Of a DNA stretch of 20,861 nucleotides, positions 1 to 20,063 are shown one piece after another. Under the pieces are notes generated by a model. That model saw only the letters and a list, made by a program, of their open reading frames with translations. It was not told the DNA's origin and ran no database searches. The stretch lies in IMG/VR virus record IMGVR_UViG_3300022666_000091, one strand, 5' to 3'. This stretch comes from an uncultured virus (IMG/VR IMGVR_UViG_3300022666_000091) (lineage: Duplodnaviria; Heunggongvirae; Uroviricota; Caudoviricetes). Made by a program: the position numbers and the translations under genes. Each line of letters starts with the position of its first letter. Position 1 is the first letter of the stretch.

Positions 1-793
1 CAAAGAGTGTATGCTTTGGATTGTTATAAGCGAGTGCCTTTGATACCTGATGGTTAATATCCTGCATCCAACGGTTTTCTCGCTGACCAATTGCTTTAAT
101 TCTTCGTCTTGATGATGGTGTCTGGCGCATCTGTAACTCTTTGCGAAGTTTAGAGTAAGCAGCTCTTTTTTGCTTAATGGATTTACCACTAACAAACGCT
201 GATTTATGCTTACTGTCATAAGTGGCAACAACAAAGTTAATACCTCTGTCAATACCAACAACATTGCATATATCAGAGAGGTCTGCTTTGGGAACATCAT
301 AAGTTACGGGGATATGCAAAAAATACTTACCATGCTTGTTGACAAGTTTTGCAGTCCCAAACTTATAAATATCGTGATTAAAATATTTTGACATACCATC
401 TTTAAAATATGGCAATTTTACTCGACCATCCAACGTATTAACAGAAAACAAGTTTTGTGTAAGTGAATAATCTCTGTTCCACACAAGGTCATACTGAGGT
501 TTCTTAAAAGATGGTTTAATCCACTCATTCTGATTTTCAAGAATGGTTTTGTATCTTGCGATGACAGTCTTAAACACAGACTGAGCCATCTGAGATTTTA
601 AGCCAAATCTTTCACGAAGGTCAGAATACAAGACCTTGTTAAGTGAAAATTGTTTCAAATCGTGGGTACGGAATATGTAGTTGGAAACATAATTACACGC
701 ATCACGATACGCAGACATAGTATTATCCAGTAATGGTTTGTCTTTTGCCGATATAGATATTTGTATTTTGGCTGTAATGGTCATCTGCTCCAT
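1..793 (-). CDS. tnpB: TnpB RNA-guided endonuclease, 5' part (cut by window edge; absent from the ORF track)
   Basis: Hand translation MEQMTITAKIQISIS...YFLHIPV...VVGIDRGINFVVATYD...RENRWMQDINHQVSKAL, with RuvC-I Asp in GIDRG. RBS GAAAGGAG at 801-808. Confidence 0.92.
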   Translation of the reverse strand, partial: MEQMTITAKIQISISAKDKPLLDNTMSAYRDACNYVSNYIFRTHDLKQFSLNKVLYSDLRERFGLKSQMAQSVFKTVIARYKTILENQNEWIKPSFKKPQYDLVWNRDYSLTQNLFSVNTLDGRVKLPYFKDGMSKYFNHDIYKFGTAKLVNKHGKYFLHIPVTYDVPKADLSDICNVVGIDRGINFVVATYDSKHKSAFVSGKSIKQKRAAYSKLRKELQMRQTPSSRRRIKAIGQRENRWMQDINHQVSKALAYNNPKHTLF

Positions 794-4350: not shown

Positions 4351-4638
4351 CTACTCGCCCGTTTCCAGCGGACACCAGTTGCCAACCTTTTTCTCGCAGC
4401 CAGCCGTAACGCGGCTACAATCGGCAGTGTGAAACCTGGGGCACATCATCTCGGCCCGCGGCTGAATGTTCTCGCGGAAAAAACATGGCCAGCGCACTAG
4501 CATGCGCGGCGACCAGAAATAGCGGCATCTTTTGCCGTCGATGATATGCGGGCAACCAGCGCAGTTCTCGTGAAGATCCCGCGTCGGGATCGGGAGCTCG
4601 TAGTTGTATGCGAAGCCTATCGTGTTAGTTCTTGCCAT
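4351..4638 (-). CDS. Cys-rich hypothetical protein
   Basis: Eight Cys in 95 aa, including CAGC. Co-oriented with the operon. Confidence 0.55.
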   Translation of the reverse strand: MARTNTIGFAYNYELPIPTRDLHENCAGCPHIIDGKRCRYFWSPRMLVRWPCFFRENIQPRAEMMCPRFHTADCSRVTAGCEKKVGNWCPLETGE

Positions 4639-4819
4639 TGTCCGCAGATGTCAAACAGCCGAAGGGAATGATAAAGATGGTCGCCAGGAGAAGGATGATC
4701 ACAACAATGAGCGCATCGATGGTGCTTGATACGCGACGCTTGAGCGACTGTCTCCTGAACGGTGCCACCAGGAAAGAAGGAAGGATTTCCAAATAGATCT
4801 TTTTCACGCTGGTTCTCAT
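4625..4819 (-). CDS. Small single-pass membrane protein
   Basis: Hydrophobic run ALIVVIILLLATIFIIPF. RBS GGGGAG. Confidence 0.65.
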   Translation of the reverse strand: MRTSVKKIYLEILPSFLVAPFRRQSLKRRVSSTIDALIVVIILLLATIFIIPFGCLTSADNGKN

Positions 4820-4836
4820 GTCTCTCCCCTGTCTTA

Positions 4837-4888
4837 TATATCAGACGCTAACTGTGTATGCTATATCAGACACTCAAGGCAAAAGCAA
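4837..4888 (-). promoter_or_regulatory. Putative internal promoter with two direct repeats (GTCTGATATA)
   Basis: TATATCAGAC at 4837-4846 and 4862-4871 in an AT-rich intergenic gap. TTGCTT-17 nt-TATAGC on the minus strand. Confidence 0.45.
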
Positions 4889-4891
4889 GTG

Positions 4892-5128
4892 CTAATTTAC
4901 CTCTTTTGCTATCTTGAAGATTTGCGCCGCCACTCCCTTACCGACGACGATAGTATCTGCAGGCATATACTCGTTGACGATGAACTTGAAGCCGCCCAGC
5001 TGGAACGCTCCCGGGGGCACCGGCCCCCGGAGTATCCTGGCGGCATCGGATATCGCCTGTTGGATTTGCTTCCCAACATCCTCTGCCGTCACTGCTGCGT
5101 TGTTGCCGCAGGTTTTGTCCGCCATCAT
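4892..5128 (-). CDS. Hypothetical protein
   Basis: ATGA overlap with the upstream gene. Confidence 0.65.
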   Translation of the reverse strand: MMADKTCGNNAAVTAEDVGKQIQQAISDAARILRGPVPPGAFQLGGFKFIVNEYMPADTIVVGKGVAAQIFKIAKEVN

Positions 5129-5313
5129 TTCACCCCGTCGTCTCCGGGCTCCAGGAAGCCGCCAGTACCCTCGATCATCTCCTCAGAATCGAACTCAGGA
5201 TCCTTACCCTTGAGCTTCGCGTGTTCTTTCCCGGCCCTGTTGACCGCTTTCCCCAGAGCGCTCTTGAAACCCTTCAGCAGCTCGTCGCCGTCTTTCGCAT
5301 ATTTCTCCGTCAC
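5125..5313 (-). CDS. Small protein coupled to the zeta-like gene (62 aa), candidate antitoxin or partner
   Basis: RBS GGAGG. GTG overlaps the zeta stop (GTGA). MTEKYAKDGDELLKGFKSALGKAVNRAGKEHAKL with an acidic tail. Confidence 0.6.
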   Translation of the reverse strand: MTEKYAKDGDELLKGFKSALGKAVNRAGKEHAKLKGKDPEFDSEEMIEGTGGFLEPGDDGVK

Positions 5314-6452
5314 GCCACACCTCCGAATATGTTGGACACGGCCCCGTGATCGACAATGCCGTGAGTCTTTGACCAGATCATTTCCGGCTGGCCGTTCCTT
5401 CTGTTGTAGACCTCGAAATCGTCTGCATGATCCTTGAGACTGGTGAACGACTTCCTGACCGCCGGGTATGCCTTCTCCAGCATGTCCATGGGGATCCACC
5501 GACCGCTCCGCTCGGCCCGCTTTCGGGCGAAGTGTTTGGCCTGGTCCACGTCGAGATCCACCATGGTCATATGGATCTTGTAGCCTTCTTTCTTCAACCG
5601 GTCAATGAGCTTCGCGTACTTGGTGATGTTCTTCATGGTCCCGTCAATAATCAGGTGCTTCCCGTCCCTGATGGCCCGATCCCGGATCTCCTCGGCAAGG
5701 TCCGAACTCTCCTCGTGGCAGAGGATGGCGGCGTTCCTGGCGCTCCCCTTGATGGCCTCCTGGTACTCGGGGATATGTTCCTTCACGTCGTCGGGATTGA
5801 CCATGACGAACTGCTTCGACATCTCGTCGTTCATCATGTGCCTGAGAATGGTGGACTTGCCGGCAGCTGGTCCGCCAGCCATGAGGATCGCCAGCTTCTG
5901 GCCGCCGGGCCTTACCGGGAGCACGTGGTCGCTGAAGGCGCCGACGATCTTCTCGTGCAGGGCCTTTCGTTCCGGCGTGTAGTCGCCGCCCCCTTTGGCC
6001 TTGTAGTGGGCCTGTGTATCCTCGGGCAGGTGAGCGAGCCTGTTCTGCCAGATGCGCGGCGGCGGGCCGGAGTGCTCCTGCTTCTCGGGGAGATTCTTCC
6101 CTTCGATGGGGGTTGCATGCGACAGGATGTGCTTTTCGTGGACGAGACCCTGCTGGCCGTCTTCATAGCGAACGTGGTACTTGCCCTTTTCCTTCTCGTG
6201 CGGTTTAACGATGGAGAACCGTTTGCCGCGGTGCTGGATACCGATCCCTTCCTTGTCGTGGATCTGGAACGCCTGGCCGGCCTTCAGGTGTTTGTTTTTC
6301 ACGTCCTGCGGCCGGACGTAGTAGGTTTCCTCGAATTGCTTACCGCCGCGGTTGACCGTCTTTTTGACGGCTATCAGGTGACCGTCGTTTCTCTTAGCCT
6401 TCTGCAGCGGGGCAAGGAGGAGGTTCTTGATGTTGAGTATCCGTTTTTTCAA
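5310..6452 (-). CDS. Zeta-toxin (PezT-like) P-loop kinase with a ~150 aa N-terminal extension
   Basis: Walker A GGPAAGKST, VNPDDVKEHIPEY, HEESS, IIDGT, RAERSGRWIP. RBS GGAGG before TTG. Confidence 0.88.
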   Translation of the reverse strand: MKKRILNIKNLLLAPLQKAKRNDGHLIAVKKTVNRGGKQFEETYYVRPQDVKNKHLKAGQAFQIHDKEGIGIQHRGKRFSIVKPHEKEKGKYHVRYEDGQQGLVHEKHILSHATPIEGKNLPEKQEHSGPPPRIWQNRLAHLPEDTQAHYKAKGGGDYTPERKALHEKIVGAFSDHVLPVRPGGQKLAILMAGGPAAGKSTILRHMMNDEMSKQFVMVNPDDVKEHIPEYQEAIKGSARNAAILCHEESSDLAEEIRDRAIRDGKHLIIDGTMKNITKYAKLIDRLKKEGYKIHMTMVDLDVDQAKHFARKRAERSGRWIPMDMLEKAYPAVRKSFTSLKDHADDFEVYNRRNGQPEMIWSKTHGIVDHGAVSNIFGGVA

Positions 6453-6473
6453 TGACGCCTCCGTGTGGATTTT

Positions 6474-6698
6474 CTATATCAGCCGTGGGCTGGGTACTGC
6501 CGGTTCGTGCATGTCAGGGTCCACCAACCGCCGGATGTTCGCCAGGATGGATATTGGATGGATACCGGAATCCTGCAGTTGGCCCAACTCCCTGACACGA
6601 TCCAGAACTGCTTGTGCGTCACCCACGCTTGCCGTCAGCCGCTTCACAGTCTCGCATTCCCGGCATTGCTTCCGGGCGATCAAATCAACCGGTTCCAC
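6474..6698 (-). CDS. Hypothetical protein
   Basis: RBS AAGGAGG before GTG. Confidence 0.6.
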   Translation of the reverse strand: MEPVDLIARKQCRECETVKRLTASVGDAQAVLDRVRELGQLQDSGIHPISILANIRRLVDPDMHEPAVPSPRLI

Positions 6699-6714
6699 GT
6701 ATGCCTCCTTTCGT

Positions 6715-6813
6715 CTAACCTCCGTAGCCGCACTCGCTGAAGCCGCAACGCGGACACTTCCAGCAAGCTCCGCGTTTCTTTAGCGGCTTTCCGCAATTTG
6801 GACATGTAATCAA
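6715..6813 (-). CDS. 32-aa Zn-ribbon microprotein
   Basis: RBS AGGAG, TTG start. MITCPNCGKPLKKRGACWKCPRCGFSECGYGG. Confidence 0.6.
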   Translation of the reverse strand: MITCPNCGKPLKKRGACWKCPRCGFSECGYGG

Positions 6814-6824
6814 CTCGGTTTCTC

Positions 6825-7229
6825 CTACCCTTTCTGTTTGAACTTTCGTCTTTCCAACGCGATCTTCTTGTTGACAGTATGCGCCCCAAAACCGTCCTCC
6901 GGTAGAATCGCCTCGTTGCAATGCGGACATGTGGGCGCCATGCCCTTGCTGCGCCATGCCTGGTCAACGCGACGAGTGGCGATCAGGAGGTTGCGCCCGC
7001 ACCGTTCCTCCAGGGCTTGCAAGTCCTTCTCCCGGGTTTGTAAAGTAGCGATAGCGGAATTGTAGTTGTTGACCAGGATCATGAACGCCTTGAACGGCTG
7101 GACCGGGAGTCCGCAATCCTGACACTCAATGTATTCGTTGTGAGGGTCGTAGCTGAGGCGCTTATGCAGGCAGACTTTGTTAAGCCGCCGTTCAAGCCGT
7201 AGCTGGTCGATTTCGATGACGTCAGCCAT
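6825..7229 (-). CDS. Phage hypothetical protein with Zn-binding motifs
   Basis: CLH...CQDC, a coiled-coil middle and CPHC. Confidence 0.75.
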   Translation of the reverse strand: MADVIEIDQLRLERRLNKVCLHKRLSYDPHNEYIECQDCGLPVQPFKAFMILVNNYNSAIATLQTREKDLQALEERCGRNLLIATRRVDQAWRSKGMAPTCPHCNEAILPEDGFGAHTVNKKIALERRKFKQKG

Positions 7230-7380
7230 TGGTCGCGGACCCTTCCGATTCTCCCCTGATGCCGTAAAGCCGCTCCCTTACCTCACGTTGTCGCTGTGCT
7301 GCCCTTGTCTCCCGGCATCCCACGAAGTACCCCGCCGCGAAGACCAGACCAGCGACAAACAGACTTAATGCAATCGTCAT
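7222..7380 (-). CDS. Small membrane-anchored protein (52 aa)
   Basis: RBS GGAGG, ATGA overlap. MTIALSLFVAGLVFAAGYFVG. Confidence 0.6.
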   Translation of the reverse strand: MTIALSLFVAGLVFAAGYFVGCRETRAAQRQREVRERLYGIRGESEGSATNG

Positions 7381-7841
7381 ATTTCCTCCACCAGCCGCCG
7401 CACCTTCTCCCGGTAACGGCACGCCTTCCTCCCTTTCCCGTTGTACCTTCTGACCCCTTCCCATAACCGGCCGTCGGCAACGGCTATCTTCTCCTCCAGG
7501 TGACTTTCCGCTACCCGCAGCGCATGGGCCGTGTCTCTCGGATTCCCGCCGGGCCACTTGAGGATCTGAAACATGGAGACCTCGCCGTCCCTGCCTACGG
7601 CTTCCGGATCGAACCTGCTTTCAGCCGCCGCTATGGCCGCCATCAGCCGCGGACGTTTACTCCCGGCCAAGATCCGCGCCGTCTTCCCCACGTCCACCCT
7701 ACCGCTGCCATGGGCCACGATGAAACGTGCCAGTCTCACTTCCATGGCCGACGGCTGCCTCAACGCCACATGCCCGATCCCGGCGGCCGGGAACAGTACA
7801 GCCGCCAGGACCAGGACCGCTACGCGCCGCCCGACAGCCAT
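7377..7841 (-). CDS. Lytic transglycosylase (SLT domain) with N-terminal signal or TM segment
   Basis: AIAAAESRFDPEAVG (catalytic Glu), SMFQI, RRYNG. Hydrophobic N-terminus. Confidence 0.82.
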   Translation of the reverse strand: MAVGRRVAVLVLAAVLFPAAGIGHVALRQPSAMEVRLARFIVAHGSGRVDVGKTARILAGSKRPRLMAAIAAAESRFDPEAVGRDGEVSMFQILKWPGGNPRDTAHALRVAESHLEEKIAVADGRLWEGVRRYNGKGRKACRYREKVRRLVEEI

Positions 7842-8959
7842 GCCTCAATCCGTGTCAGGGTCTCACCCCAACTGTTTGCCATGCGTTCCTGAAGGAAGCA
7901 CTGGAGCAGGTAACGCAGGTGCCCGATACCCTTTTCCAACAGGTAGATCTTTTCGAGCGCCACGGCCTGGTGCTCTGCGATCTCGTCCCCGTCCCGCTCG
8001 ATCTGGACCTTCGGGCAGCGCATGGACGCGATATCGAAACTCTCGGCCTTCAGGGTCAGGCGCCACTCGTTGTCGTCGGTATCGGAAAAGAAGATGGTGG
8101 CCTCGGCAACCTGCCCGCCGTCGCGGAGTGCCGCCATTGCAGCCTCGGGGATCTTCGCCTGAGTGCCGGCCATGGTGATCTTCTGCGGGTCCTCGTTGCA
8201 GATGACCAGCTTCTTGTCGATCCAGGAGGAAAGCTCGGGCCGGGTGAACATGCCGTCGGTTCCCTGGACGTACAGCAACCACTTGAGGAAATCAGTGCCG
8301 ATCCAGGCATTGGATTTGAGGAGATCAAGGAGCGCCTCGGTTGACGCACGATTGGCGGCATGGAGCGCAAGCAGGGTGCCGGGGAGATCGGATTCAGCCA
8401 GCACGTCCACGGCGGTCAAGTACGGCACCTGCCACTTGGCGTGAACTTCGGGAAAGGTCCGCTTGAAGGCTGACTCAAAGAGGTCTACGGCCGCTTTGGA
8501 TGTGGTGAAGAGGAAGAGTTTGCCGGTCTTGGTGTTCCAGACGGCATCGTAAATGGTCGGGACCGGAAGGGTCTTGAGGAGGAGTTGCTGACGGACGCTT
8601 TCCTTGATCTCCTCGCGCTTCTGTTTGGGGACTCGCCGATAACCAGGATTCTCCGTGAGAAATTTTTTGCATGCTGCATCAAACACTTCGCGCATGACTG
8701 CGCCGGGCACCTTCCGTTGCTCCTGGCGAAGGGCCAGGAAAACGTAATCTCCGATGGTGGCGTCTGTCGGCTCATCGAAGGTGGTCAGCTGTCGCTGGAA
8801 GAAGTTGACCCAGCCGACGGATCGTTCCTCTGTGGAATCGAGAATCGGAACGAAGGCAAGCCGCTTCAGTCCTTGAAGGATCTCGGCGGGCGGCGGGATG
8901 GAACTGTTGTCCGTGATGGCGAATGTCATGATGTTGCACGTACTTCCGTAAAAACCCAT
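7820..8959 (-). CDS. rdgC: Recombination-associated protein RdgC family
   Basis: LKRLAFVPI...ERSVGWV, LALRQEQRKVPGAVMRE, KQKREEIKESVRQQLL..TLP.P, F..TF. RBS AAGGAG. Confidence 0.82.
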   Translation of the reverse strand: MGFYGSTCNIMTFAITDNSSIPPPAEILQGLKRLAFVPILDSTEERSVGWVNFFQRQLTTFDEPTDATIGDYVFLALRQEQRKVPGAVMREVFDAACKKFLTENPGYRRVPKQKREEIKESVRQQLLLKTLPVPTIYDAVWNTKTGKLFLFTTSKAAVDLFESAFKRTFPEVHAKWQVPYLTAVDVLAESDLPGTLLALHAANRASTEALLDLLKSNAWIGTDFLKWLLYVQGTDGMFTRPELSSWIDKKLVICNEDPQKITMAGTQAKIPEAAMAALRDGGQVAEATIFFSDTDDNEWRLTLKAESFDIASMRCPKVQIERDGDEIAEHQAVALEKIYLLEKGIGHLRYLLQCFLQERMANSWGETLTRIEAWLSGGA

Positions 8960-9045
8960 GGGTGCTCCTTCCTTTGTTGTTGTTTTTCAGCTAGTTGTGG
9001 CGTGTGGGCATAAACTGTTTCTTGCAAGAATCGGATTGTGCATGG

Positions 9046-9438
9046 TTATGCAGAACGAACTAAAATACCGTCATCATCATCGTGGAAACGAACATTACTA
9101 ACTCCACCCCAAAGTTTTGCCCATCCACGCAATCCGAACCAGTCCTGTTCTGCAAATTTCACAAATGACACCACTTCATTTCTCGCCCCTTCAAATTCAA
9201 ATACATCATCTTCAAAAGGAAGGTCTAAATTATCGTTCAATATCCACCATTCACCTTCGTGCCAAAGCCCCCAAAGATAATCATCACTGAATTCCTCTTC
9301 TGGGTCACCGCACGTCACCCAAAGCAGATATTGAGAAGCATTTGCATATGCTGGGACAGTATCGGCGGGGAAAAACTGCATAACCATCGGGTGGACTTGA
9401 CCGCCCGTTTCAGTGGTGTTTGTGGCTGTTTCGCTCAT
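9046..9438 (-). CDS. Acidic, Trp-rich hypothetical protein (cassette ORF, 130 aa)
   Basis: RBS GAAAGGGA and ATG 9438 lie in the attC loop. The TAA stop coincides with the GTTA core site. Confidence 0.7.
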   Translation of the reverse strand: MSETATNTTETGGQVHPMVMQFFPADTVPAYANASQYLLWVTCGDPEEEFSDDYLWGLWHEGEWWILNDNLDLPFEDDVFEFEGARNEVVSFVKFAEQDWFGLRGWAKLWGGVSNVRFHDDDDGILVRSA

Positions 9439-9484
9439 AATTTCCCTTTCCTTTTGCGAGGGCGGACAAGTCACCCTCAAAGCG
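9046..9484 (+). mobile_element. Integron-like gene cassette with antisense ORF, bounded by G|TTATGC and an attC-like site
   Basis: GTTATGC at 9045-9051, R'' GCATAAC at 9378-9384, L-box stem, R' GTTATAC at 9484-9490. Lower GC than the flanks. Confidence 0.6.
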
Positions 9485-9490
9485 TTATAC
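9378..9490 (+). other. attC-like recombination site
   Basis: GCATAAC-CATC-GGGTGGACTTGACCGCCC (9389-9406) pairs with GGGCGGACAAGTCACCC (9460-9476), with one unpaired base and one mismatch. Followed by TCAAAGC-GTTATAC. Confidence 0.62.
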
Positions 9491-9847
9491 CCTTTCGACA
9501 GGCTCCCGTGTCCACCGTCCTCTTCCGTCCTTGATATCGACCCGCAAATTCTGCGGCTGCATCATCCGGTCAACTGCCTGCTCAACCGTCTCGCCGCTCA
9601 TCATTTCCGATGCCGCAATCTTCAGCCAGGTTTTGAACCGCTTAGATTCGGTCAGCCTGCGGAAGGCTATGCGCTGATTCTGTGCCTGGCTCCGTTCTTC
9701 GCGGCTTTCGCCAACGGCCCCGGATGCCGGATGTGTGATTCGGCAGGCCGAAGAAGTCTTGTTCTGGTGCTGACCCCCGGGGCCACCGGCACAGAAATAC
9801 TCAATGCGGAAATCTTTCCTGGTTACGCTGAACAACAGTTCTTTCAT
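9485..9847 (-). CDS. Stand-alone peptide chain release factor-like (GGQ domain) protein
   Basis: AGGPGGQHQNKTSSACRITHPASG...EERSQAQNQRIAFRRL matches class I RF domain 3. No codon-recognition domains in 120 aa. Confidence 0.9.
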   Translation of the reverse strand: MKELLFSVTRKDFRIEYFCAGGPGGQHQNKTSSACRITHPASGAVGESREERSQAQNQRIAFRRLTESKRFKTWLKIAASEMMSGETVEQAVDRMMQPQNLRVDIKDGRGRWTREPVERV

Positions 9848-9849
9848 GG

Positions 9850-9963
9850 CTACCTTTCCTTGCTGTACCTGTCATCATTCCGCGGGTTGTAGCGGCATTC
9901 CCGGCACGCCTCGCTCTTGCCGTGTTCACTGTGCTGGTGAAAGACACGGCAGTACCAAGTCAT
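9850..9963 (-). CDS. 37-aa Cys/His microprotein
   Basis: ATGA overlap. MTWYCRVFHQHSEHGKSEACRECRYNPRNDDRYSKER fills the gap exactly. Confidence 0.45.
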   Translation of the reverse strand: MTWYCRVFHQHSEHGKSEACRECRYNPRNDDRYSKER

Positions 9964-10952: not shown

Positions 10953-11297
10953 TTAATCTTCATTGTCGAATGTCGAAGTGTCCACGTACTGGAGGGCGTC
11001 GCCGTCGCTTTCCACGGCCTTGAGGCAGACTTCCGGGGTCTGGTCCTTCACGTACTGGAGGGCGTAGCCGTCGCTTTCCACGGCCTTGAGGCAGACTTCC
11101 GGGGTCTGGTCCTTCACGTACTGGAGGGCGTCGCCGTCGCTTTCCACGGCCTTGAGGCAGACTTCCGGGGTCTGGTCCTTCACGTACCGGAGGGCGTAGC
11201 CGTTTCTTTCCACGGCCTTGATAGCGTCTTCACCTTTCAATATGACGATTTCACTGTACGACCGTTTAACCAATGCCAAAAATTCTTGCAGTTTCAT
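10953..11297 (-). CDS. DUF4116-like 22-aa repeat protein
   Basis: Repeated AV..DG.ALQYVKDQTPEVCLK. RBS AAGGAGG. Confidence 0.85.
   Translation of the reverse strand: MKLQEFLALVKRSYSEIVILKGEDAIKAVERNGYALRYVKDQTPEVCLKAVESDGDALQYVKDQTPEVCLKAVESDGYALQYVKDQTPEVCLKAVESDGDALQYVDTSTFDNED
10983..11221. repeat. 66-bp tandem repeat, about 3.6 near-identical copies
   Basis: Units beginning CACGTAC at 10983, 11049, 11115 and 11181. Confidence 0.95.
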
Positions 11298-11319
11298 GTT
11301 GCCTCCTTGGTTTGTTGTT

Positions 11320-11526
11320 TTACCGCCTCTCGCCGGTGATCTTCAGAATCCGCTTCACCCTGTCGTCTGCGTCAATCAGGCCTTTCACGTTGTCGAGTAT
11401 GTTCTGGCCAGGGTAGCCGGTGTGTCGCAACTCGCATATTTCCCGGATGGTCTTTATCACCTCCACGGCATAGGCTAAGTTCGGGCACCCTTTCCTGTTG
11501 ATGCACACTGAGTCGCTTCCGGCCAT
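11320..11526 (-). CDS. Hypothetical protein
   Basis: RBS AGGAGG. Confidence 0.6.
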   Translation of the reverse strand: MAGSDSVCINRKGCPNLAYAVEVIKTIREICELRHTGYPGQNILDNVKGLIDADDRVKRILKITGERR

Positions 11527-11535
11527 GACTGCCTC

Positions 11536-11856
11536 CTATCCCATCGGATGATACTCCCCCTCGTCGTCATACGGCAGCCGCCCCTGCGGGCTGACCTGCA
11601 GCTGATATTCCATAATCGGCCGCGCCTGAAGACCGGCCGCCAGCCGCCGGGCGACGTCTTCGCTGGTGAACGTGAGCCCGTAGATCGCCCCCTGCGTGAA
11701 GCAGCGGGTATACTCCGGGATGTCGCCCACGGCCGGGACATCTACGCGGATGAAATGACAGCCGCCGATGGTCTGCTCCGTGATGCGGCCAGCCAGCTTG
11801 TTGTGGCCGAAGAGCTCCACCAGGCCCCATGCCTCGAACTGCTGCTTGTCGTCCAT
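11536..11856 (-). CDS. Conserved phage hypothetical protein
   Basis: WxxVELFGHxxLAGRxTEQTIGG..FIRVDVP pattern. RBS GAAAGGA before ATG 11856. Confidence 0.8.
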   Translation of the reverse strand: MDDKQQFEAWGLVELFGHNKLAGRITEQTIGGCHFIRVDVPAVGDIPEYTRCFTQGAIYGLTFTSEDVARRLAAGLQARPIMEYQLQVSPQGRLPYDDEGEYHPMG

Positions 11857-11887
11857 GCTGTTCCTTTCCATTAAATTATTTTTGTTT

Positions 11888-11920
11888 GGTGTATCACACA
11901 TCGTATGGTGTGTCAAACAC
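11888..11920 (-). promoter_or_regulatory. Promoter/operator motif, copy 1
   Basis: TTGACA-17 nt-TACACC on the minus strand. Similar to 17964-17997. Confidence 0.6.
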
Positions 11921-11931
11921 AAAATACACAA

Positions 11932-12183
11932 CTACACATCGACTCCAGGCAACACGGCCTCCAGGCAGCAGTCGCCGAAAACCGGCATGACCAACTGCTT
12001 TTTCGCGGCATGAATAGCGCGTAACCGTTCACTGGAAACGCCCTTCAGCGCCCGAACCTCTTCGGCCGTGTAGATGACCTCTTTGATCCCGTGACGGCGG
12101 GCAGCGGCCAGGGCCTTCTCGTCGAAGACTATGCCGATCCGCTCGTTGAGGATCTTGGAATCTATCAGGACGCAGAGGGACAT
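11932..12183 (-). CDS. Hypothetical protein
   Basis: MSLCVLIDSKILNERI...YTAEEVRAL...IHAAKKQL. Start uncertain. Confidence 0.6.
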   Translation of the reverse strand: MSLCVLIDSKILNERIGIVFDEKALAAARRHGIKEVIYTAEEVRALKGVSSERLRAIHAAKKQLVMPVFGDCCLEAVLPGVDV

Positions 12184-12317
12184 TGTTGTTGACCGGCAGA
12201 TTTGAGCGCGTCGGCAATGAGCACCTGCAGCGCCGCCTTTGCCTGACAGTCGTTGCGGTATTCCTTGGCCTGCCACTGCTCGATGATGTCCAAGGCAACC
12301 TCTTCCGGCGTTTTCAT
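12165..12317 (-). CDS. Hypothetical protein (50 aa; not in the track)
   Basis: RBS AGGAGGAG, ATGA overlap. MKTPEEVALDIIEQWQAKEY... Confidence 0.6.
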   Translation of the reverse strand: MKTPEEVALDIIEQWQAKEYRNDCQAKAALQVLIADALKSAGQQQCPSAS

Positions 12318-12532
12318 GTCTCCTCCTGGCCCCTGGACGTCATGGCCTGCTCGTAGGTAGAAAAGGTTCTAACACCGTCGAATGTCCACCGTCCCGAAAA
12401 CGGAAGGAGAAACCCGACAAACATCAGCCATGGCTCTCCCAGGGGCCATTCGCCATCTCTACAAAAAAGAGTACGGGCATCATGCCGCAGTCTTGCTGCG
12501 ATCTCGATTGCCCACGTTCTCCACCCCAGCAT
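12314..12532 (-). CDS. Hypothetical protein
   Basis: RBS GGGGGAG just after the terminase stop. Confidence 0.5.
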   Translation of the reverse strand: MLGWRTWAIEIAARLRHDARTLFCRDGEWPLGEPWLMFVGFLLPFSGRWTFDGVRTFSTYEQAMTSRGQEET

Positions 12533-12540
12533 CACTCCCC

Positions 12541-14544
12541 CTACCCCGGCCGGCACTCGCTCCGGCCCAGCTGCGCCGCGACCTCCTCCGGCGTCGTTCC
12601 GTCCAGCACCCGCACCTTGAGGTCACAGCGGGTACATTCCCAGTGATTCGTGCCAACGAGTTGTACGAAGGCGTGTTCTCCCGGCTTGGCTGCCTGCGCG
12701 GCGACGAAGGAGCCGAAGGCCCGGCTGGTTCCTTCCTGGGAGACGCGGGACAGCGCCAGCTCCGCATACAGGTCTGCGTGGGCGAAGTGGGGGTCGATGC
12801 CGATGTTCTCGAACACCATCCGGTATTTGCCCTGGGCCTCGTTGATCACTTCCTTTCGGCGGGCGAGCTTTTGCAGGTGGACCCAGAATACCTGTTCACA
12901 GATAAACTGCACCTGGGCGCGGCCGGAGTTGTCCTTGACCTCGGCCACCAAGCCGCACTCGTGGGGCTGTTCCTTCAGGCGGTGGACGTATTTCATCAGG
13001 TTCCATTCCAGGCCGTGGTAGCGGCTGATCCTGACCGTGTACCTGTTCTTGATCTCGTCGGACGATTTCTTCTCGGAGTTGGTCTGCTTCGGCCGGTCGC
13101 CCCACTCGCATATGTCCTGGTCGCCCTTCGATTCGTAGGAATAGTCGGCGAGCCATACCCGTCCGGGCCATCGCTGGGCAAACCTGCGGGCCTCGTTGAT
13201 GTTCGGCAGCGCATCGGCTACGCAGGCGCTGATGTCGAACTGTCGCATCAGTTCGTCGGCCCGCTCCCACGGGTCGTCACCATAGACGATCTCCAGGTGC
13301 GCCAGCCGGGATTTACAAACCCCGAGGTCACACTTGGGTCCCCAATAGCGGACCACGATCACGTTGAATCCACCCATCTGGTCGATGCCCATGGCGAAGT
13401 TGGTACCGTTGCGGAGCCACTTGATCTCGACGTTCACCGTAGAGCGCAGAATGTCGGTGGTGACTATCTGTGCTTCGGGCGACAGATACGGCACACCCAG
13501 CTTCGAATTGTAGAACTCCTGGAGGTCGCTCGCCTCCTGAAAAGCCCGCAGTATCTTCCCGGCGTCCTGCCGGCAGGAAAGGGTCTGCGGGATGTGATAG
13601 CCGACAATCGGTGAGCTTGGGTTGTGCGCAATCCACCGGCCGTCCCTGGGGTTGGTAATGATGGTCTTACAGGTCGGGCAGATATAGAAGAATTCTTTGC
13701 CGTTTTTGTCGCCGATGCAGTCCGGGAAAACGTCCGACAGCACGACACCGTCCTTGCAGCCGCAGTTGCTGTGGAACTTGTGCTGGTTCGACTGCTTGAA
13801 GTATTTGTCGATGTTCGCGTCCGGGTAGCCGGCCGTCGAGTATTTGAAGTTGATGGGGTAGGGGGAGTGCGACATGCGTTCTTCGGCTCGCTCGATGTCG
13901 CCTTCGAGCATCTTGCGGATCTCGTCGAACACGACGGCGAGCATCGGTATGGACTCGGTTGATGTCTGGCCCTGCATGTAGCTGAAGAAGATTTGCGACG
14001 GACCGATGGAGCGGACCCGCTTTTGGTCGGTCTTGCGCTTGTCGCCGTCCCAGGCGGTGGGGTCCTCGCCCCATAACGGCCGGATTTCCGGGATGGAGCG
14101 GACCGTCGGCTTGAATCGGACGTCCGAGAAAATCATCGCCATGGCTTGGTCTGGGAGGAAGTAGCCGAAGTATTTGCCCCAGAAGCGTAATGCGGCCCAG
14201 ACCAGAAACATAAACCCGAAGACGGTCTTGCCGACCTGAGCACCGCACTGGAGGACCATCTTCAGCCCCTCCGGGTTATGGTCCCCTGTGACCGCCATGG
14301 CGCGGTATGGCTCGATCAGGTACTCGTGGCCCTCCCAGGTGAATGGTTCGTTATCGACCTTGAGGGTCGGCCTGATCTGCTCCACGAAATCAAAGAGACA
14401 GTCCGGCACATTCTTGACGATCTCGGGTTTCGCCGGGACGATAATGCCGCGCTGCCTGGCCAATTGCCTGGCCCGCAATAGTTGCGCTGCCTGTTGAACG
14501 ATCTCTGGCGGGTAGCTATAGTTTTCGGCCCTCGATGATTGCAA
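12541..14544 (-). CDS. terL: Terminase large subunit, lambda GpA-like
   Basis: GAQVGKT (Walker A), VVFDEI (Walker B), YSTAG, CPTC, FYNSKLGVPY, MGIDQ (nuclease), DPHFAHAD. Confidence 0.9.
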   Translation of the reverse strand: MQSSRAENYSYPPEIVQQAAQLLRARQLARQRGIIVPAKPEIVKNVPDCLFDFVEQIRPTLKVDNEPFTWEGHEYLIEPYRAMAVTGDHNPEGLKMVLQCGAQVGKTVFGFMFLVWAALRFWGKYFGYFLPDQAMAMIFSDVRFKPTVRSIPEIRPLWGEDPTAWDGDKRKTDQKRVRSIGPSQIFFSYMQGQTSTESIPMLAVVFDEIRKMLEGDIERAEERMSHSPYPINFKYSTAGYPDANIDKYFKQSNQHKFHSNCGCKDGVVLSDVFPDCIGDKNGKEFFYICPTCKTIITNPRDGRWIAHNPSSPIVGYHIPQTLSCRQDAGKILRAFQEASDLQEFYNSKLGVPYLSPEAQIVTTDILRSTVNVEIKWLRNGTNFAMGIDQMGGFNVIVVRYWGPKCDLGVCKSRLAHLEIVYGDDPWERADELMRQFDISACVADALPNINEARRFAQRWPGRVWLADYSYESKGDQDICEWGDRPKQTNSEKKSSDEIKNRYTVRISRYHGLEWNLMKYVHRLKEQPHECGLVAEVKDNSGRAQVQFICEQVFWVHLQKLARRKEVINEAQGKYRMVFENIGIDPHFAHADLYAELALSRVSQEGTSRAFGSFVAAQAAKPGEHAFVQLVGTNHWECTRCDLKVRVLDGTTPEEVAAQLGRSECRPG

Positions 14545-14887
14545 GCAGTTCCTCGTCGGTCATCTCCTCAAGCCTTTTGCCTTGGGGCATCTCCAGGACG
14601 GTTGTTTCCTTCCAACCGGCGCGGCATTTGAGGTAGAAGATGGTTGCGGTCGTATTGCCAGCCTTGATCTGCTTCATCAGCTCGCTGGTGACAGACCCGA
14701 TGCCCAGGGCCTTCCCTTCCTTTATGGCCTCGGCAAATTCGGAATATTGCTTCTTTTTATTGATCAGGGTGTCGTGGCAGATGCCCAGGGCGTCCGCGAT
14801 CTGTTTCTCGGTCAGCCCCTGTGCTGCCAGTTTTTTCACTACTGCCGGTTCCGGCGGAACCCACGGTGGTCGTCCTCGTCCTGCCAT
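14516..14887 (-). CDS. terS: Terminase small subunit (HTH)
   Basis: GRPP, GLTEKQIADALGI, GNTTATIFYLK, MTDEELLAI. Overlaps terL. Confidence 0.82.
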   Translation of the reverse strand: MAGRGRPPWVPPEPAVVKKLAAQGLTEKQIADALGICHDTLINKKKQYSEFAEAIKEGKALGIGSVTSELMKQIKAGNTTATIFYLKCRAGWKETTVLEMPQGKRLEEMTDEELLAIIEGRKL

Positions 14888-14973
14888 AGCTTACCTCGTT
14901 CTCTGTTTCCGTTTTTGGTATTTTCTCCCCGAATCCTTTCCGGGGTCCAGCATTTTGCCTTCATCCCGCAAAC

Positions 14974-15138
14974 TCAAGCACTCGATGGCGTTTCCTGTAT
15001 CGGCACATCGGGGAAGTTGGCGCTTCCGATGTCCTTGGCAATTCGGGTCGCGGCCTGGCGGTTGTCCGCCTCGACGTAGACCCTGAATCTGTATCGCAAA
15101 AAGTGCCCGGCGGCCTGGCTTTGGAGCCACCGGGCCAT
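14974..15138 (-). CDS. Hypothetical protein (54 aa)
   Basis: MARWLQ...FRVYVEADNRQAATRIA. Weak RBS. Confidence 0.4.
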   Translation of the reverse strand: MARWLQSQAAGHFLRYRFRVYVEADNRQAATRIAKDIGSANFPDVPIQETPSSA

Positions 15139-15205
15139 GGAGTCTGTTCCTGCTCGGGCAGGGGTGTTTTCTCGGCGAAAACGGCAAGAATGGCCGGTTT
15201 CGGTC

Positions 15206-15565
15206 TTAGACGACCACAAAAACTTCGGGCAGGTGTTCTACCATTTCCTGCCACAACATCGTCGCCACCTCCCGCATTTGGGGGTGGGCCGCCGGAGATG
15301 TGCGCAGCCGGAAGAAGTGTCGCCATTCGCGGAGGTTCATGGTCATGACGATCTCGGTCTTCAGGCTGTTTGGGAGGACGGTCCGGGCTTCCTCAGGTTT
15401 CCATCCCCTCTCACGCAGTTTCTTGTAGTGTTGCTCTGCGTGATACATGGCACTCAGCCAGTCCGCTGTCGCTGGGTATTGCGTGGTGGTCGGGATATCG
15501 TTGTACTGCCCGGCGAACACGCCTTCGCACCACGGTGGAATAATGAACGCTACATGGCCGTTGGA
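15206..15565 (-). pseudogene. thyX: FAD-dependent thymidylate synthase ThyX, 3' half only
   Basis: EEARTVLPNSLKTEIVMTMNLREWRHFFRLRTSPAAHPQMR. Begins exactly at the IS right end. The RHRx7S motif half is absent from the window. Confidence 0.9.
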
Positions 15566-15750
15566 TTGACGTACTCCCACGGCTAAAGCGCGTGGGATTC
15601 TAGGCTCAAGCGGTCGCTGCTCCCCAAAGGGAGTCTCACGCGACCTAACCTAAGAGAAGACGCCCCTTCTCTGTGGATGTTTACAGCGGCGTTGTGGTCG
15701 CGGTCATGGATGACGCCACAACAGGAACAGACCCAACGCCGATCAGACAG
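15546..15750 (-). ncRNA. Predicted TnpB omegaRNA/reRNA; guide read from the thyX flank; 5' boundary approximate
   Basis: Inferred from established TnpB biology: the scaffold overlaps the tnpB 3' end and right end. Predicted guide TCCAACGGCCATGTAGCGTT. Confidence 0.55.
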
Positions 15751-16749
15751 TTTTAACTCTTGGATATGCCCGCAATCGGAACAGGTCTTAGAAGACGGAT
15801 AGAAACGATTGACCAGATGAACAACTTTGCCTTTGGTGGATGCAACGTACTGCAAAATGCTCATAAACTCGGAACGCGCAATGTCACTAACTTTGCGCCC
15901 CCACATGGCTTGCATCCCCTTCATAGCAAGGTCTTCAAAGAACAGTTGATCGTACCTGTCCGTCAACTCATGCGCCAGCTTAAAGAACCAATCGCGGCGA
16001 CGGTTAACCACGCGCCGATAAATGCGTGCCACATTGCGCTTTGCCTTGTGCCAGTTGCGCGAACCTTTGCGCTTACTCGACATACGACGCTGCGCCTGGC
16101 GCAATTCATCAAGCGCTTGGCGATAGTACAGCGGGGACTCAATCGCTTGCCCATCCGATGTGGTGAGAAAAGTCTTCAGGCCAAAATCAAAGCCCGCGCT
16201 GTTACCTGTCATGGCTTGATTGCTTTGGTCGATTTCTTCTTGCACCACAAAGTAGAGGTAGAGATTGCCCAACGTGTCGCGCTTGACTGTGACCGTCTTG
16301 ACGCCCGCGGGGATGTCGCGGCTCTTGCTGTATCTGTAGATTCTGCCCTGGATGTAGATGCGGTTTCCTTCGAGCAACTTCCAACCAGCCTGCTTGAGAG
16401 TGAACGAACTGTATTTTTTGACCTTTTTGAACGAGGGTGGCGCGGTCTTGACCTTGCGCTTGAGGTTGCCAAAGAACAATTTGTAGGCGCGGTCAATGCG
16501 CTGCGCTATGTCCTGAATGGCTTGCGAACCAACCAGATTCCAGTGAGCATAGCGCGGCAGTTTCTTGAGCTTTGTGAGATGTCGCATCAAATCGTACTGG
16601 CTCAAATGCTTACCAGTCAGACGATAGTAGCGACGGTGAAGCGCAATGCAGTGGTTGTAGATCAGACCCGCAATGTCAATCTGCTGGTGCAAATGCTTAT
16701 TCTTTTTTGCCCGATACAGCTTGAACTTGTAGGTCTTGGTCAGAATCAT
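15583..16749 (-). CDS. tnpB: TnpB RNA-guided endonuclease (388 aa)
   Basis: MILTKTYKFKLY start overlaps the tnpA stop (ATGA). RuvC motifs GFDFG, FEDL, DRDHNAA. Zn finger CSDC/CSCC. Confidence 0.95.
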   Translation of the reverse strand: MILTKTYKFKLYRAKKNKHLHQQIDIAGLIYNHCIALHRRYYRLTGKHLSQYDLMRHLTKLKKLPRYAHWNLVGSQAIQDIAQRIDRAYKLFFGNLKRKVKTAPPSFKKVKKYSSFTLKQAGWKLLEGNRIYIQGRIYRYSKSRDIPAGVKTVTVKRDTLGNLYLYFVVQEEIDQSNQAMTGNSAGFDFGLKTFLTTSDGQAIESPLYYRQALDELRQAQRRMSSKRKGSRNWHKAKRNVARIYRRVVNRRRDWFFKLAHELTDRYDQLFFEDLAMKGMQAMWGRKVSDIARSEFMSILQYVASTKGKVVHLVNRFYPSSKTCSDCGHIQELKLSDRRWVCSCCGVIHDRDHNAAVNIHREGASSLRLGRVRLPLGSSDRLSLESHAL

Positions 16750-17147
16750 TGGTTCTTCTGATCTTCGATGTAGCGGCGAATTGTTTCTTGCGAGATATGA
16801 CCAACGGATTCGCAATAGTACGAACGTGTCCACAGGGTAGGCAAGCGACTTTTGAGCTTGGGGAACTCTTTCCTCAATTCGTGCGAGGAATAACCCTTCA
16901 ACTGTTGGACGATATAGTGCGGTGGCAACGTGGGGGGGGCTTTGACAAAGATATGCACGTGATCGGGCATGACTTCCATGATCTCGATATGCGCGCCGAT
17001 GCTTGCAGCCCTTTCGGTCAACAACTCTTTCAGCCTGTCGGCAACCGCGCCAAGCAGCACCTTGCGTCTGTACTTCGGACACCAGATCAGGTGATAGCCA
17101 ATGTTGTAGACCGCTTTGTTGCTCGTTGTCCATCGCTCGTTCGCCAT
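16746..17147 (-). CDS. tnpA: IS200/IS605 transposase TnpA
   Basis: YHLIWCPKYRR, PDHVHIF, LWTRSYY, IRRYIEDQ. Confidence 0.97.
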   Translation of the reverse strand: MANERWTTSNKAVYNIGYHLIWCPKYRRKVLLGAVADRLKELLTERAASIGAHIEIMEVMPDHVHIFVKAPPTLPPHYIVQQLKGYSSHELRKEFPKLKSRLPTLWTRSYYCESVGHISQETIRRYIEDQKNQ

Positions 17148-17153
17148 ACCAGA

Positions 17154-17182
17154 AGTATATCAAATTGTTATGCTTCGGGCAA
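17154..17182 (-). promoter_or_regulatory. tnpA promoter, likely leaderless transcript
   Basis: TTGCCC-17 nt-TATACT ends 6 nt before the ATG. No Shine-Dalgarno. Confidence 0.55.
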
Positions 17183-17243
17183 GTATATACTGTACAGTTC
17201 AAATGTAGCGGGCTTTCATCCAACGGTTAAAACACGTTGGCTT

Positions 17244-17810
17244 TCAGCCCGAGAGGTGCCGTAAAAAAGATCCCGAACCTGCGTAAATCAGCGGTCCGTA
17301 ATCATCTCTGAAATACTCCTGATATTGAGCACTTAACGCGTTTACGAACACGCGCGATGGTGCGTGAGGCTTCCGCTGTCCGGCATACTTCTTCATTTCA
17401 GGGAAACTCGTTGCCAATACCTCAAAAAAAGTGCTGTGCAACTCGCAAGTCATTTCCTCTTGCCTCTTCTTGTAGTCATAAGCCGCATAGAACTTTTGTG
17501 ATTGTTCCCAATAAAAGAGCTTTTTCACAAGGTCATCGTAGGTGAAGTGCTCAACCGGTTCTCCGTCCACGATTGCATGTTGGATGTTGTGCTGCGGCCG
17601 CTCCTGTTGAATTGCAAAACGCTCCGCACGTTCTGCCTCGGCACGTGAAGGGTAATATTCGATATCTACCCTGGTGACTTCTTCGTACCAGGGTTTTTCT
17701 TGACGATGTTGCGCCATGCGTTGTATGGCGTGCAGTGAGACACCGACGTACAACAGATGATCTTCAGAATCGTAGTACCGATACAATGCCGTTCGTTCTT
17801 TGCCCTTCAT
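17244..17810 (-). CDS. GIY-YIG nuclease-domain protein; C-terminus clipped by the IS left end
   Basis: ALYRYY...LLYVGVS...R..QH...AE..AI..ERP.HN. Last codons (RHLSG*) come from IS sequence. Confidence 0.8.
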   Translation of the reverse strand: MKGKERTALYRYYDSEDHLLYVGVSLHAIQRMAQHRQEKPWYEEVTRVDIEYYPSRAEAERAERFAIQQERPQHNIQHAIVDGEPVEHFTYDDLVKKLFYWEQSQKFYAAYDYKKRQEEMTCELHSTFFEVLATSFPEMKKYAGQRKPHAPSRVFVNALSAQYQEYFRDDYGPLIYAGSGSFLRHLSG

Positions 17811-17956
17811 ACCCCCAGCTCCTGCAACAGATTTTCCACTGCCCGGCGCATCAACTCGCTGACTGAATACCCCGTCTGCTGCCTCGCCTTCTTGAGCCGC
17901 AGCAAGACCTGCTCAGGGAAATAGAAGTTGGTACGCTTCATCGTGCGCCGTTTCAT
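17807..17956 (-). CDS. CopG/ribbon-helix-helix regulator (49 aa; not in the track; alternative start 17941)
   Basis: MKRRTMKRTNFYFPEQVLLRLKKARQQTGYSVSELMRRAVENLL. ATGA overlap with the GIY-YIG gene. Confidence 0.85.
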   Translation of the reverse strand: MKRRTMKRTNFYFPEQVLLRLKKARQQTGYSVSELMRRAVENLLQELGV

Positions 17957-17963
17957 GTGTATA

Positions 17964-17997
17964 GGTGTAGCACATGTTCGGTTGGTGTATCAAACAC
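17964..17997 (-). promoter_or_regulatory. Promoter/operator motif, copy 2
   Basis: TTGATA-18 nt-TACACC ends 7 nt before the RHH ATG. Similar to 11888-11920. Confidence 0.6.
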
Positions 17998-19798: not shown

Positions 19799-20063
19799 GC
19801 TGTCTCTCCTCTGTATCGTTTGACCTGCTCCATGATCTCTTCTGCTACGTTCTTAACAACCGGGTTGGCTTCCATCTCCTCGTGACGGCGAAGCACCCAT
19901 GGCACCACCGTTTCGCAGAGATCGATAAGGTGTTTCAGAACATTCACCGCCTCTTTTGCGTCGGTCAACGCCTTTTTCAAGCCCGCATTCTCTACGATGG
20001 TTGCACCGGGATCGGGTTCGGATCGCAAATGGTGTATCGCTCTCCAAGGTACCAGTTGCCCAT
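19795..20063 (-). CDS. Hypothetical protein, probably split by a 1-nt frameshift near 20012-20020
   Basis: Strong RBS GGAGG before ATG 20063 opens only 23 codons. The downstream frame is coupled to the methyltransferase by ATGA. Confidence 0.5.

Follow-up and report, generated by a model that had tools for sequence, protein, structure and literature searches.

Integron cassettes, as known from class 1 integrons and from the chromosomal arrays of Vibrio and Shewanella, are recognized by attC sites in which RYYYAAC/GTTRRRY-type cores flank an imperfect hairpin with one-sided extra bases; the stop codon of the gene lies in the AAC core, the start of a cassette is complementary to its own R'' core over 9-12 bp, a fixed R'' is combined with a hybrid R', and structurally alike sites of differing sequence follow one another in arrays. 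Typically, though not absolutely, the gene is co-directional with the top strand of attC. Here we describe a unit that shares these features except the last, with sites of 48-131 nt, in IMG/VR record IMGVR_UViG_3300022666_000091, a 20,861-nt stretch of DNA from an uncultured virus of the Caudoviricetes (the whole of this stretch is called the window below). The unit occupies positions 9046-9484, between an RF-1-like gene and rdgC, and is probably one integron-type cassette, inserted there as a single attC site lacking an integrase (SALIN), of a family that forms clusters of attC sites lacking an integrase (CALINs) in other wastewater-type phages. The observation itself is confirmed, and comparison with other genomes supports the cassette reading well.

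Phages and loci outside integrons are known to carry attC sites without an integrase. Qi et al. (2023; PMC9892861) report three integrons and 17 CALINs among 10,705 phage genomes, and state that five of the six sites tested from virulent phages recombined with IntI1, while Loot et al. (bioRxiv 10.1101/2022.09.11.507474) describe SALINs and also the insertion that IntI brings about at attG sites of genomes. In both cases an integrase is assumed to act in trans and the cargo is accessory, as in the present case. So far as the text of the former study indicates, the published phage sites are canonical, because they were found by IntegronFinder or HattCI, and their genes run mostly in the usual direction (PMC9892861), whereas the arrays described here are all reversed, carry start signals inside some of the sites and largely escape the attC model. 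Unlike the published phage CALINs, moreover, one family of sites, which we call site A after the copy in the window, is common to at least six unrelated phage contexts. A literature search, which was not exhaustive, found no published description of reversed arrays, of starts inside attC loops or of the site-A family.

Two further systems are comparable in part. In attI1, ORF-11 provides an example of a recombination site that supplies a translation start fused or coupled to the following cassette gene; there the start belongs to the attI of the platform, whereas here the cassette itself brings the start, in the variable loop of its attC-like site. In T4-type phages, the PeSL motifs, which are promoter-plus-terminator stem-loops, reportedly border small accessory genes in hyperplastic regions and are said to have been proposed to shuffle modules via homology. 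Site A differs from these: promoter and terminator motifs are absent, and attC-type features (cores, end repeats, bulges) are present.

Recurrence of the site and complementary unit ends

Exact-word scans with part of site A found it in six more contigs, three viral and three from metagenomes. The only locus DNA that the window has in common with G002, G003, G004, L019 and L020 is 9376/9378-9487/9489, at 82-97% identity (blastn), a block that runs on the coding strand from (A)TAAC to GATGGTTATGC. The sole other similarity is a C5-methylase gene (18.05-19.77 kb), at 67-76% between the window and G002 and G004. Site A is also present in L021, the only close relative of the window. In six contexts the site heads six different open reading frames (ORFs), of 130, 101, 183 (with an HD domain), 102, 96 and at least 63 amino acids, and the complete ones (5/5) all terminate with GCATAAC, which complements the fixed core of the site. 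Two more proteins, P0006 and P0007, share with the cargo protein of the window, P0001, only the first 20 residues (MSETATNTTETGGQVHPMVM) and diverge fully thereafter, thus representing two further bodies behind the same leader. It is this exact recurrence in other genomes, and not the window alone, that shows site A to be non-random. The comparison of these sequences further supports the view that the window's unit is a horizontally recurring module, which forms arrays in other phages.

The division between leader and body is also visible in the cargo protein itself. P0001 matched no family in Pfam, PHROG or NCBIfam, and an exhaustive search of 1.84 billion representative proteins placed it in a small family with eight relatives at E<=1e-3. 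These relatives align from about residue 17-20 on, the closest leaderless ones (P0005 and P0008) having only a short N-terminus. In line with this, residues 1-17 are disordered in the AlphaFold model of P0001 (pLDDT 63.5), for which a Foldseek search of the PDB gave nothing at E<=1e-3. Since the relatives start at about residue 17-20 and residues 1-17 of the model are disordered, the first 20 codons are best regarded as part of the site and not of the protein family.

The largest array lies in G003, a complete 58.3-kb genome with terminal repeats that encodes ParA, a serine resolvase and a CI-like repressor. Eight sites or cassettes stand there between small genes at 41,625-45,193, immediately upstream of the terminase genes, and shorter head-to-tail runs occur in G002, G004, L020, L023, L027 and L029. 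The preliminary description had called the cassette solitary, which holds for this window and not for the other phages, where the units form arrays. The array sites measure 48-131 nt and differ in sequence, most sites of one array being unlike each other, and all read ...TAAC-G...hairpin...G-GTTA... on the coding strand, with the stop of the upstream gene usually being the TAA of the first core. All 16 strands that were folded gave hairpins (z -1.05 to -3.94). Sites of 48-58 nt contain no start signals, whereas a second long family, F2, has a ribosome-binding site and an ATG in its loop and precedes different ORFs, to which it is joined by a constant ...PVDSLV... stretch. A long site of a third kind, at G003 42663-42797 (L013 2663-2797), also has both signals in its loop; its GTTA core is in another reading frame than in site A and F2, so that a fixed valine codon at the joint is not general. 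Elsewhere in the same array, one cassette with two ORFs lies behind a consensus box, TTGACA-16 nt-TATAAT, read by eye at G003 43075-43102 (L013 3075-3102), and some cassettes may therefore bring their own promoter. A separate observation on this genome is a single open reading frame of 6032 amino acids at 8258-26356 (L011-L012).

The ends of the units are complementary to each other. Across the intervening gene or gene pair, the last 9 nt of one site (GTTA and five further bases) match exactly, as reverse complement, the first 9 nt of the next (five bases and TAAC); the five variable bases differ between units yet covary. In the seven units of G003 read by eye, the match was 8/9 once and 9/9 in the other six. 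Perfect GTTAnnnnn...nnnnnTAAC pairs number eight in G003, seven of them chained, where shuffles give 1.1; four were found in L029, three each in L023 and G004, two in L020 and one each in L027, L021 and the window, compared with two in the 252 kb of 79 unrelated phage loci that served as a control. The claim that the cassette's own start complements its R'' thus holds at 9/9 in the window, and the relatives add 22 perfect pairs, with repeat lengths of 9-12 bp. Bona fide integron arrays, represented by the integron of Shewanella phage M16-3, a class 1 array in a P1 isolate and a fragment of the Vibrio anguillarum chromosomal integron, behave alike under the same measure: of 22 pairs listed, 11 match fully (9/9) and 16 at 8/9 or better, the perfect runs being 8-12 bp long; low values occur where intervening sites were skipped. 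Complementarity of the cassette start to its own R'' is the prediction of the circular-cassette model, and no other single argument speaks as strongly for the units being integron-type cassettes.

Anatomy, orientation and surroundings of the unit

The features of the unit and of its neighbours are listed in Table 1. The limits of the cassette were set by the cores, by the 9-bp end repeat (GTTATGCAG/CTGCATAAC, matching at 9/9) and by the limits of the conserved block in six contexts; the crossover point itself is a prediction.

Table 1. Positions of the unit, its parts and the adjoining genes in the window
Feature	Position	Strand	Remarks
RF-1-domain (GGQ) gene	9485-9847	-	Upstream of the cargo ORF; Pfam RF-1 E 1.3e-18, PHROG 3122 E 2.6e-30
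RdgC-like gene	7820-8959	-	Downstream of the cargo ORF; Pfam RdgC E 2.1e-12; NCBIfam RdgC models only below cut-off
Cargo ORF P0001, 130 amino acids	9046-9438	-	Residues 1-20 (9379-9438) encoded by site A; body at 9054-9377 (+ coordinates)
Predicted cassette, 439 bp	9046-9484	+ (attC top strand)	Order: TTATGCAG, ORF antisense, R''-hairpin-G
attC-like site A, 113-nt imperfect hairpin	9378-9490	+	R'' GCATAAC, 4-nt spacer, stem, 53-nt loop, stem, 7-nt spacer, R' GTTATAC
R'' core with 2-nt extension, CTGCATAAC	9376-9384	+	Core GCATAAC at 9378-9384; minus strand encodes ..HPMVM..
R' core GTTATAC	9484-9490	+	Predicted crossover G|TT between 9484 and 9485; TTA complements the TAA at which the RF-1 gene stops
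Left core with 2-nt extension	9045-9053	+	Core GTTATGC at 9045-9051; exact complement of 9376-9384; TTA complements the TAA at which the ORF stops
L''/L' stem	9389-9406 with 9460-9476		Bulged G9394 (C on the 3' arm of the coding strand), A9400.A9466 mismatch
Hairpin loop, 53 nt	9407-9459		Contains the ribosome-binding box and the ORF's ATG
Translation start in loop	9436-9453	-	Strong AAGGAAAGGGA box at 9443-9453, ATG at 9436-9438; kept in all site-A copies
Site B, imperfect palindrome beside the left core	9008-9044		Ends in GTTTATGC; position where an attI or a decayed attC would sit

All that the preliminary description had read from the letters was borne out: an attC-like site with GCATAAC and GTTATAC cores is present, a second core, GTTATGC, complementary to R'' is found on its left at a distance of 333 bp, the ORF runs antisense to the site, starts in its loop, reads through R'' as HPMVM and stops at the TAA of the left core, and the RF-1-domain gene ends at the TAA inside R'. 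The match between R'' and the left core does extend to a perfect 12-nt inverted repeat (9042-9053/9376-9387). The single unpaired base claimed for the stem is there, as the bulged G9394, with the A.A mismatch 9400/9466 in addition. The two cores of the site are complementary at 6/7, as is expected of an attC, and the spellings GCATAAC and GTTATGC also occur among the 26 real attCs that were aligned; likewise, the extrahelical base is one-sided and lies on the L'' side of the folding strand, as in attCs. The hairpin folds moderately better than shuffled sequences (z -2.07 and -2.70, one per strand). Perfect 12-nt inverted repeats spaced 50-600 nt are found at three loci of the window, and perfect inverted repeats other than that of the cassette are one of 13 nt at 3669-3681/3955-3968, in a radical-SAM-like gene, and one of 14 nt at 8318-8331/8601-8614, in rdgC.

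Because the site is nearly symmetric, its orientation needed testing, and four lines of evidence are concordant. First, the core adjoining the ORF body is invariant, GTTATGC on the coding strand, in 6/6 contexts, whereas the opposite core varies with the neighbour in all six (GTATAAC, TTCTAAC, TCATAAC, TTATAAC, TAATAAC and ATATAAC); such a fixed R'' with a hybrid R' is the pattern that would be expected of a G|TT crossover. Second, of 15 folds seven carry single-base bulges on the coding strand's 3' arm, the others being mixed (one), perfect short stems (three) or otherwise folded (four), with none reversed, and the bottom strands of aadA7 and TJE1 given in Table S3 of Qi et al. (2023; PMC9892861) have their bulges on the same side. 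On the folding strand the bulged base is C in site A and G in F2. An automatic count of bulges (5 versus 6, with 9 equal) was discarded since it mixed spacer asymmetry with bulges, and the folds were read instead. Third, all matches to a model of real attCs (5/5) fall on the non-coding strand. Fourth, C precedes GTTA on the non-coding strand in 16 of 18 sites, compared with 23 of 26 real attCs. These lines put the attC top strand on the + strand of the window, the non-coding one, in agreement with the assignment first proposed, so that the genes are reversed relative to ordinary cassettes. Read on the sense strand, a unit opens with C, spacer and hairpin, after which come the gene and its final TAA. 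The ORFs are on the bottom strand both in the window and in every array examined, and the usual co-direction with the attC top strand was not found.

The surroundings leave no doubt about the phage character of the window, which encodes a large terminase, a dUTPase, two DNA methylases, GIY-YIG and HNH nucleases, an SLT lysozyme, a zeta-toxin-domain protein and two TnpB proteins. The RF-1-like gene, the cargo ORF and rdgC are all on the minus strand. As had been remarked at the outset, the segment is lower in GC: 43.5% in the ORF body versus 56.7% in the RF-1 gene and 58.8% in rdgC, a foreign composition that we count in favour of a cassette. When GenBank phages were searched by blastn with window 7820-9847, the single match was a weak one to RF-1, and protein searches of the locus with P0003, P0001 and P0005 found nothing beyond the window's twin contig. 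The closest other RF-1 locus, L047 (68% amino acid identity), has the start of an F2-like site (TATAAC G...GACCGGGGGA...ATG) near its end, at about 2420-2470. Beside the left core, site B is 85% identical over 39 nt to the end of the G004 array (L008 3793-3831) in otherwise unrelated DNA; an 18-mer search for it matched only the twin contig, G004 and, by chance, one AT-rich phage. Site B could be an attI-like site or a decayed attC.

Further observations concern other parts of the window. Two OrfB_IS605/TnpB genes lie at 2-793(-) and 15586-17223(-), the second with a Cas12f-like TNB domain, and no Y1 transposase was found among the window ORFs scanned. The nearest virus record, G001, overlaps the window at 11110-19900 only and is 99-100% identical on both sides of about 15560-15565, where it has about 3.9 kb of extra DNA (L001-L003; G001 4456-8358); this point is 20 nt from the end of the second TnpB gene. 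Additionally, tandem repeats of about 66 nt lie at 10983-11221, within a DUF4116 gene (10956-11297, -), and the window and L021 align there in several registers.

Counter-evidence and rival explanations

Several results weigh against an integron-type cassette. One group concerns membership in the attC family. The preliminary description had suggested scoring the site with an attC covariance model, and the outcome was unfavourable: R1, a home-made surrogate built from 26 real attCs with 13 pairs, whose boundaries were counted by eye and confirmed by alignment, gives the window's site 5.0 bits on the + strand and 1.6 bits on the - strand, with only the R box aligned, and reported nothing for it at E<=10 in a search of 64.5 kb. 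The model is only moderately sensitive, as a held-out site, TJE1 attC1, scored 22.1 bits and the best match anywhere in the P12002L genome, irrespective of its two published sites, was no better than E=1.7. A sibling site at G002 4763-4864, which flanks a site-A cassette, reaches 18 bits (E 0.08), and three other sites reach 9-10 bits. The spacers of the window's site, 4 nt (CATC) and 7 nt (TCAAAGC), likewise depart from the 5 and 5-6 nt of real sites parsed by eye (aadA1, estX, TJE1 attC2, She10 and Va3), and site A has C in place of G as the bulged base of its folding strand. On two of the tested features, spacers and model score, the site thus fails as a strict member of the attC family; the window's unit would be a SALIN, and its array-forming relatives CALINs, if the site is accepted as an attC on the strength of its anatomy and of the comparison. 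Finally, the 12-nt repeat taken alone is within chance, since 45% of 200 Markov simulations gave at least one such repeat (mean 0.83).

A second group concerns the enzyme. As first noted, there is no intI in the window, where no tyrosine recombinase was found among the ORFs scanned, and the suggested search for IntI-like recombinases, made in the related phage genomes, revealed neither an IntI nor a conserved recombinase. PF00589 is absent from five of nine related records (G002, G003, G005, G006 and G007), and the PF00589 proteins scanned, those of G004 and G009, are generic and not IntI (TIGR02249 47 bits versus a cut-off of 265), the matches of G008 and G010 having been left out of this survey. 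These two recombinases are 23% identical to each other and lie far from the arrays or several genes away. A complete integron, with intI, attI and the cassette promoter Pc beside the array, was not found. Among 185,579 representative bacterial and archaeal genomes, site A has no match, and site F2 has only two chance matches without core or partner arm.

These results would fit the explanation that the units only resemble integron cassettes and are moved by an enzyme of their own other than IntI, such as an Xer-like tyrosine recombinase of phage or host or some further kind of enzyme, the likeness to attC being convergent or very distant. The 4/7-nt spacers, the failure of most sites in the real-attC model and the absence of IntI from the related records scanned and of site copies from the bacterial genomes searched are all as this explanation would have them. 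No recombinase, however, is shared by or adjacent to the arrays: G003, G006 and G007 have no PF00589 recombinase at all, and those of G004 and G009 are dissimilar and distant. Moreover, cores, flanking C, bulge side and cassette-end repeats are all as in true attCs, and the sibling site is near-canonical. We therefore regard this explanation as unlikely, though not negligible.

A third group concerns mobility. The preliminary description had suggested looking for relatives with an empty or differently filled site between the GGQ gene and rdgC: no presence/absence variant was found at this locus, and the sole close relative, L021, carries the same cassette. The two sequences are 100% identical over 8931-9676, a tract of 746 nt that overruns both G|TT boundaries, and have diverged outside it (90.8% over the RF-1 gene as a whole, 77% in the rdgC part), so that this tract looks like a patch of homologous exchange. 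Among 79 other RF-1-like phage loci, one ends in TAA followed by C; P0001 is absent from all of them, and in no case does rdgC follow downstream in this order. No comparison with an empty site is possible because no other contig has RF-1 next to rdgC. No empty site, excised circle or alternative G|TT-bounded cassette was seen. The 21 sequencing runs available are sets of contigs and not raw reads, because of which circles and rare joints cannot show; the four that were compared gave no joints, X8, X9 and X12 covering parts only. In run X10, a contig (depth 50.8) matches the window fully over 8700-9059 and then has 28 unlike letters to its end, thus departing 14 nt inside the cassette and not at G|TT. 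It seems from this contig that the phage exists with other content at the cassette position, which is a lead and not a proof. Furthermore, a G|TT crossover in the favoured orientation cannot explain how one site came to be joined to eight ORF bodies; that joining would be cassette genesis or an exchange inside the site, a step that such a crossover leaves unexplained.

The identical tract, which is not bounded by cores, and the 82-97% identity of the sites across unrelated genomes might instead point to conserved linkers for homologous recombination, similar to PeSL, through which co-infecting phages swap genes without any site-specific enzyme. This is distinctly improbable: linkers would leave unexplained the perfect, covarying inverted repeat of 9-12 bp across each ORF, the combination of a fixed core with a neighbour-dependent one and the one-sided bulges, and sites within one array are mostly dissimilar and offer little homology. 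Likewise, no promoter- or terminator-like motif marks the site, since a scan of 8800-9900 for the two kinds gave 0 and 0, which does not agree with PeSL. Intergenic hairpins that act in the RNA to control translation or processing of each small gene, with an incidental likeness to attC, would account for the ribosome-binding site and ATG in the long-hairpin loops of site A, F2 and the third site of G003 and for the intergenic position of all sites on the coding strand, yet they are very improbable as the whole explanation, given that an Rfam scan of the site found no family, that the 48-58-nt sites lack start signals and that repeats bracketing the ORFs, fixed and hybrid cores and near-identical sites in unrelated genomes are not predicted by them. 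A role in the RNA may well coexist with one in the DNA.

A candidate route of cassette exchange

If the unit is an integron-type cassette, as the comparison suggests, it would be moved in trans by a tyrosine recombinase acting on a folded strand, either a host IntI or a look-alike. The recombination site would be the folded hairpin at 9378-9490, with the coding strand of the phage serving as the folding strand that resembles an attC bottom strand, and the crossover would split TAA|C in the mRNA-sense strand, which is G|TT in the + strand. Each insertion would leave the upstream gene with a TAA stop, and the cassette would end in a TAA of its own while supplying, within the hairpin loop, its own ribosome-binding site, ATG and first 20 codons. 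Because stops and start signals would come with the cassette, it could be expressed in a phage operon without an integron promoter. The phage units differ from integron cassettes in that the loops of some sites encode a ribosome-binding site, an ATG and about 20 codons, and also in having bottom-strand genes throughout, 4/7-nt spacers and no intI, attI or Pc, and the window's site in going unreported by the 26-attC model. Excision would yield a 439-nt circle whose site is closed by a perfect 9-bp R box, with the predicted junction ...TCAAAGCG|TTATGCAG..., and phages may trade accessory genes through such units.

A wider possibility, which we put forward tentatively and with less confidence than a balance of evidence would require, is that these units represent a phage-adapted, reverse-oriented branch of integron cassettes. 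In such a branch the sense strand would be the recombinogenic one, TAA|C would act as a universal stop and the loop as a portable expression head on at least eight unrelated bodies, and the units would circulate among unrelated wastewater phages and phage-plasmids without an integrase of their own, largely escaping the models used for attC censuses.

Work on integron cassettes, censuses included, has dealt almost wholly with bacteria and has used models trained on canonical attCs, and the published phage CALINs are few. Should the sites be inactive relics, the window would add one more CALIN or SALIN, of modest interest. If the family is active, it would amount to a private pool of phage cassettes, self-expressing in any operon and unseen by current censuses, and would offer phages a further site-specific way of becoming mosaic and of exchanging accessory genes, among them probably genes for host takeover or anti-defence. 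Additionally, with the same site heading many different genes, the site-A family makes a concrete body of data on the long-standing question of how cassettes arise, and could show how new ones are made.

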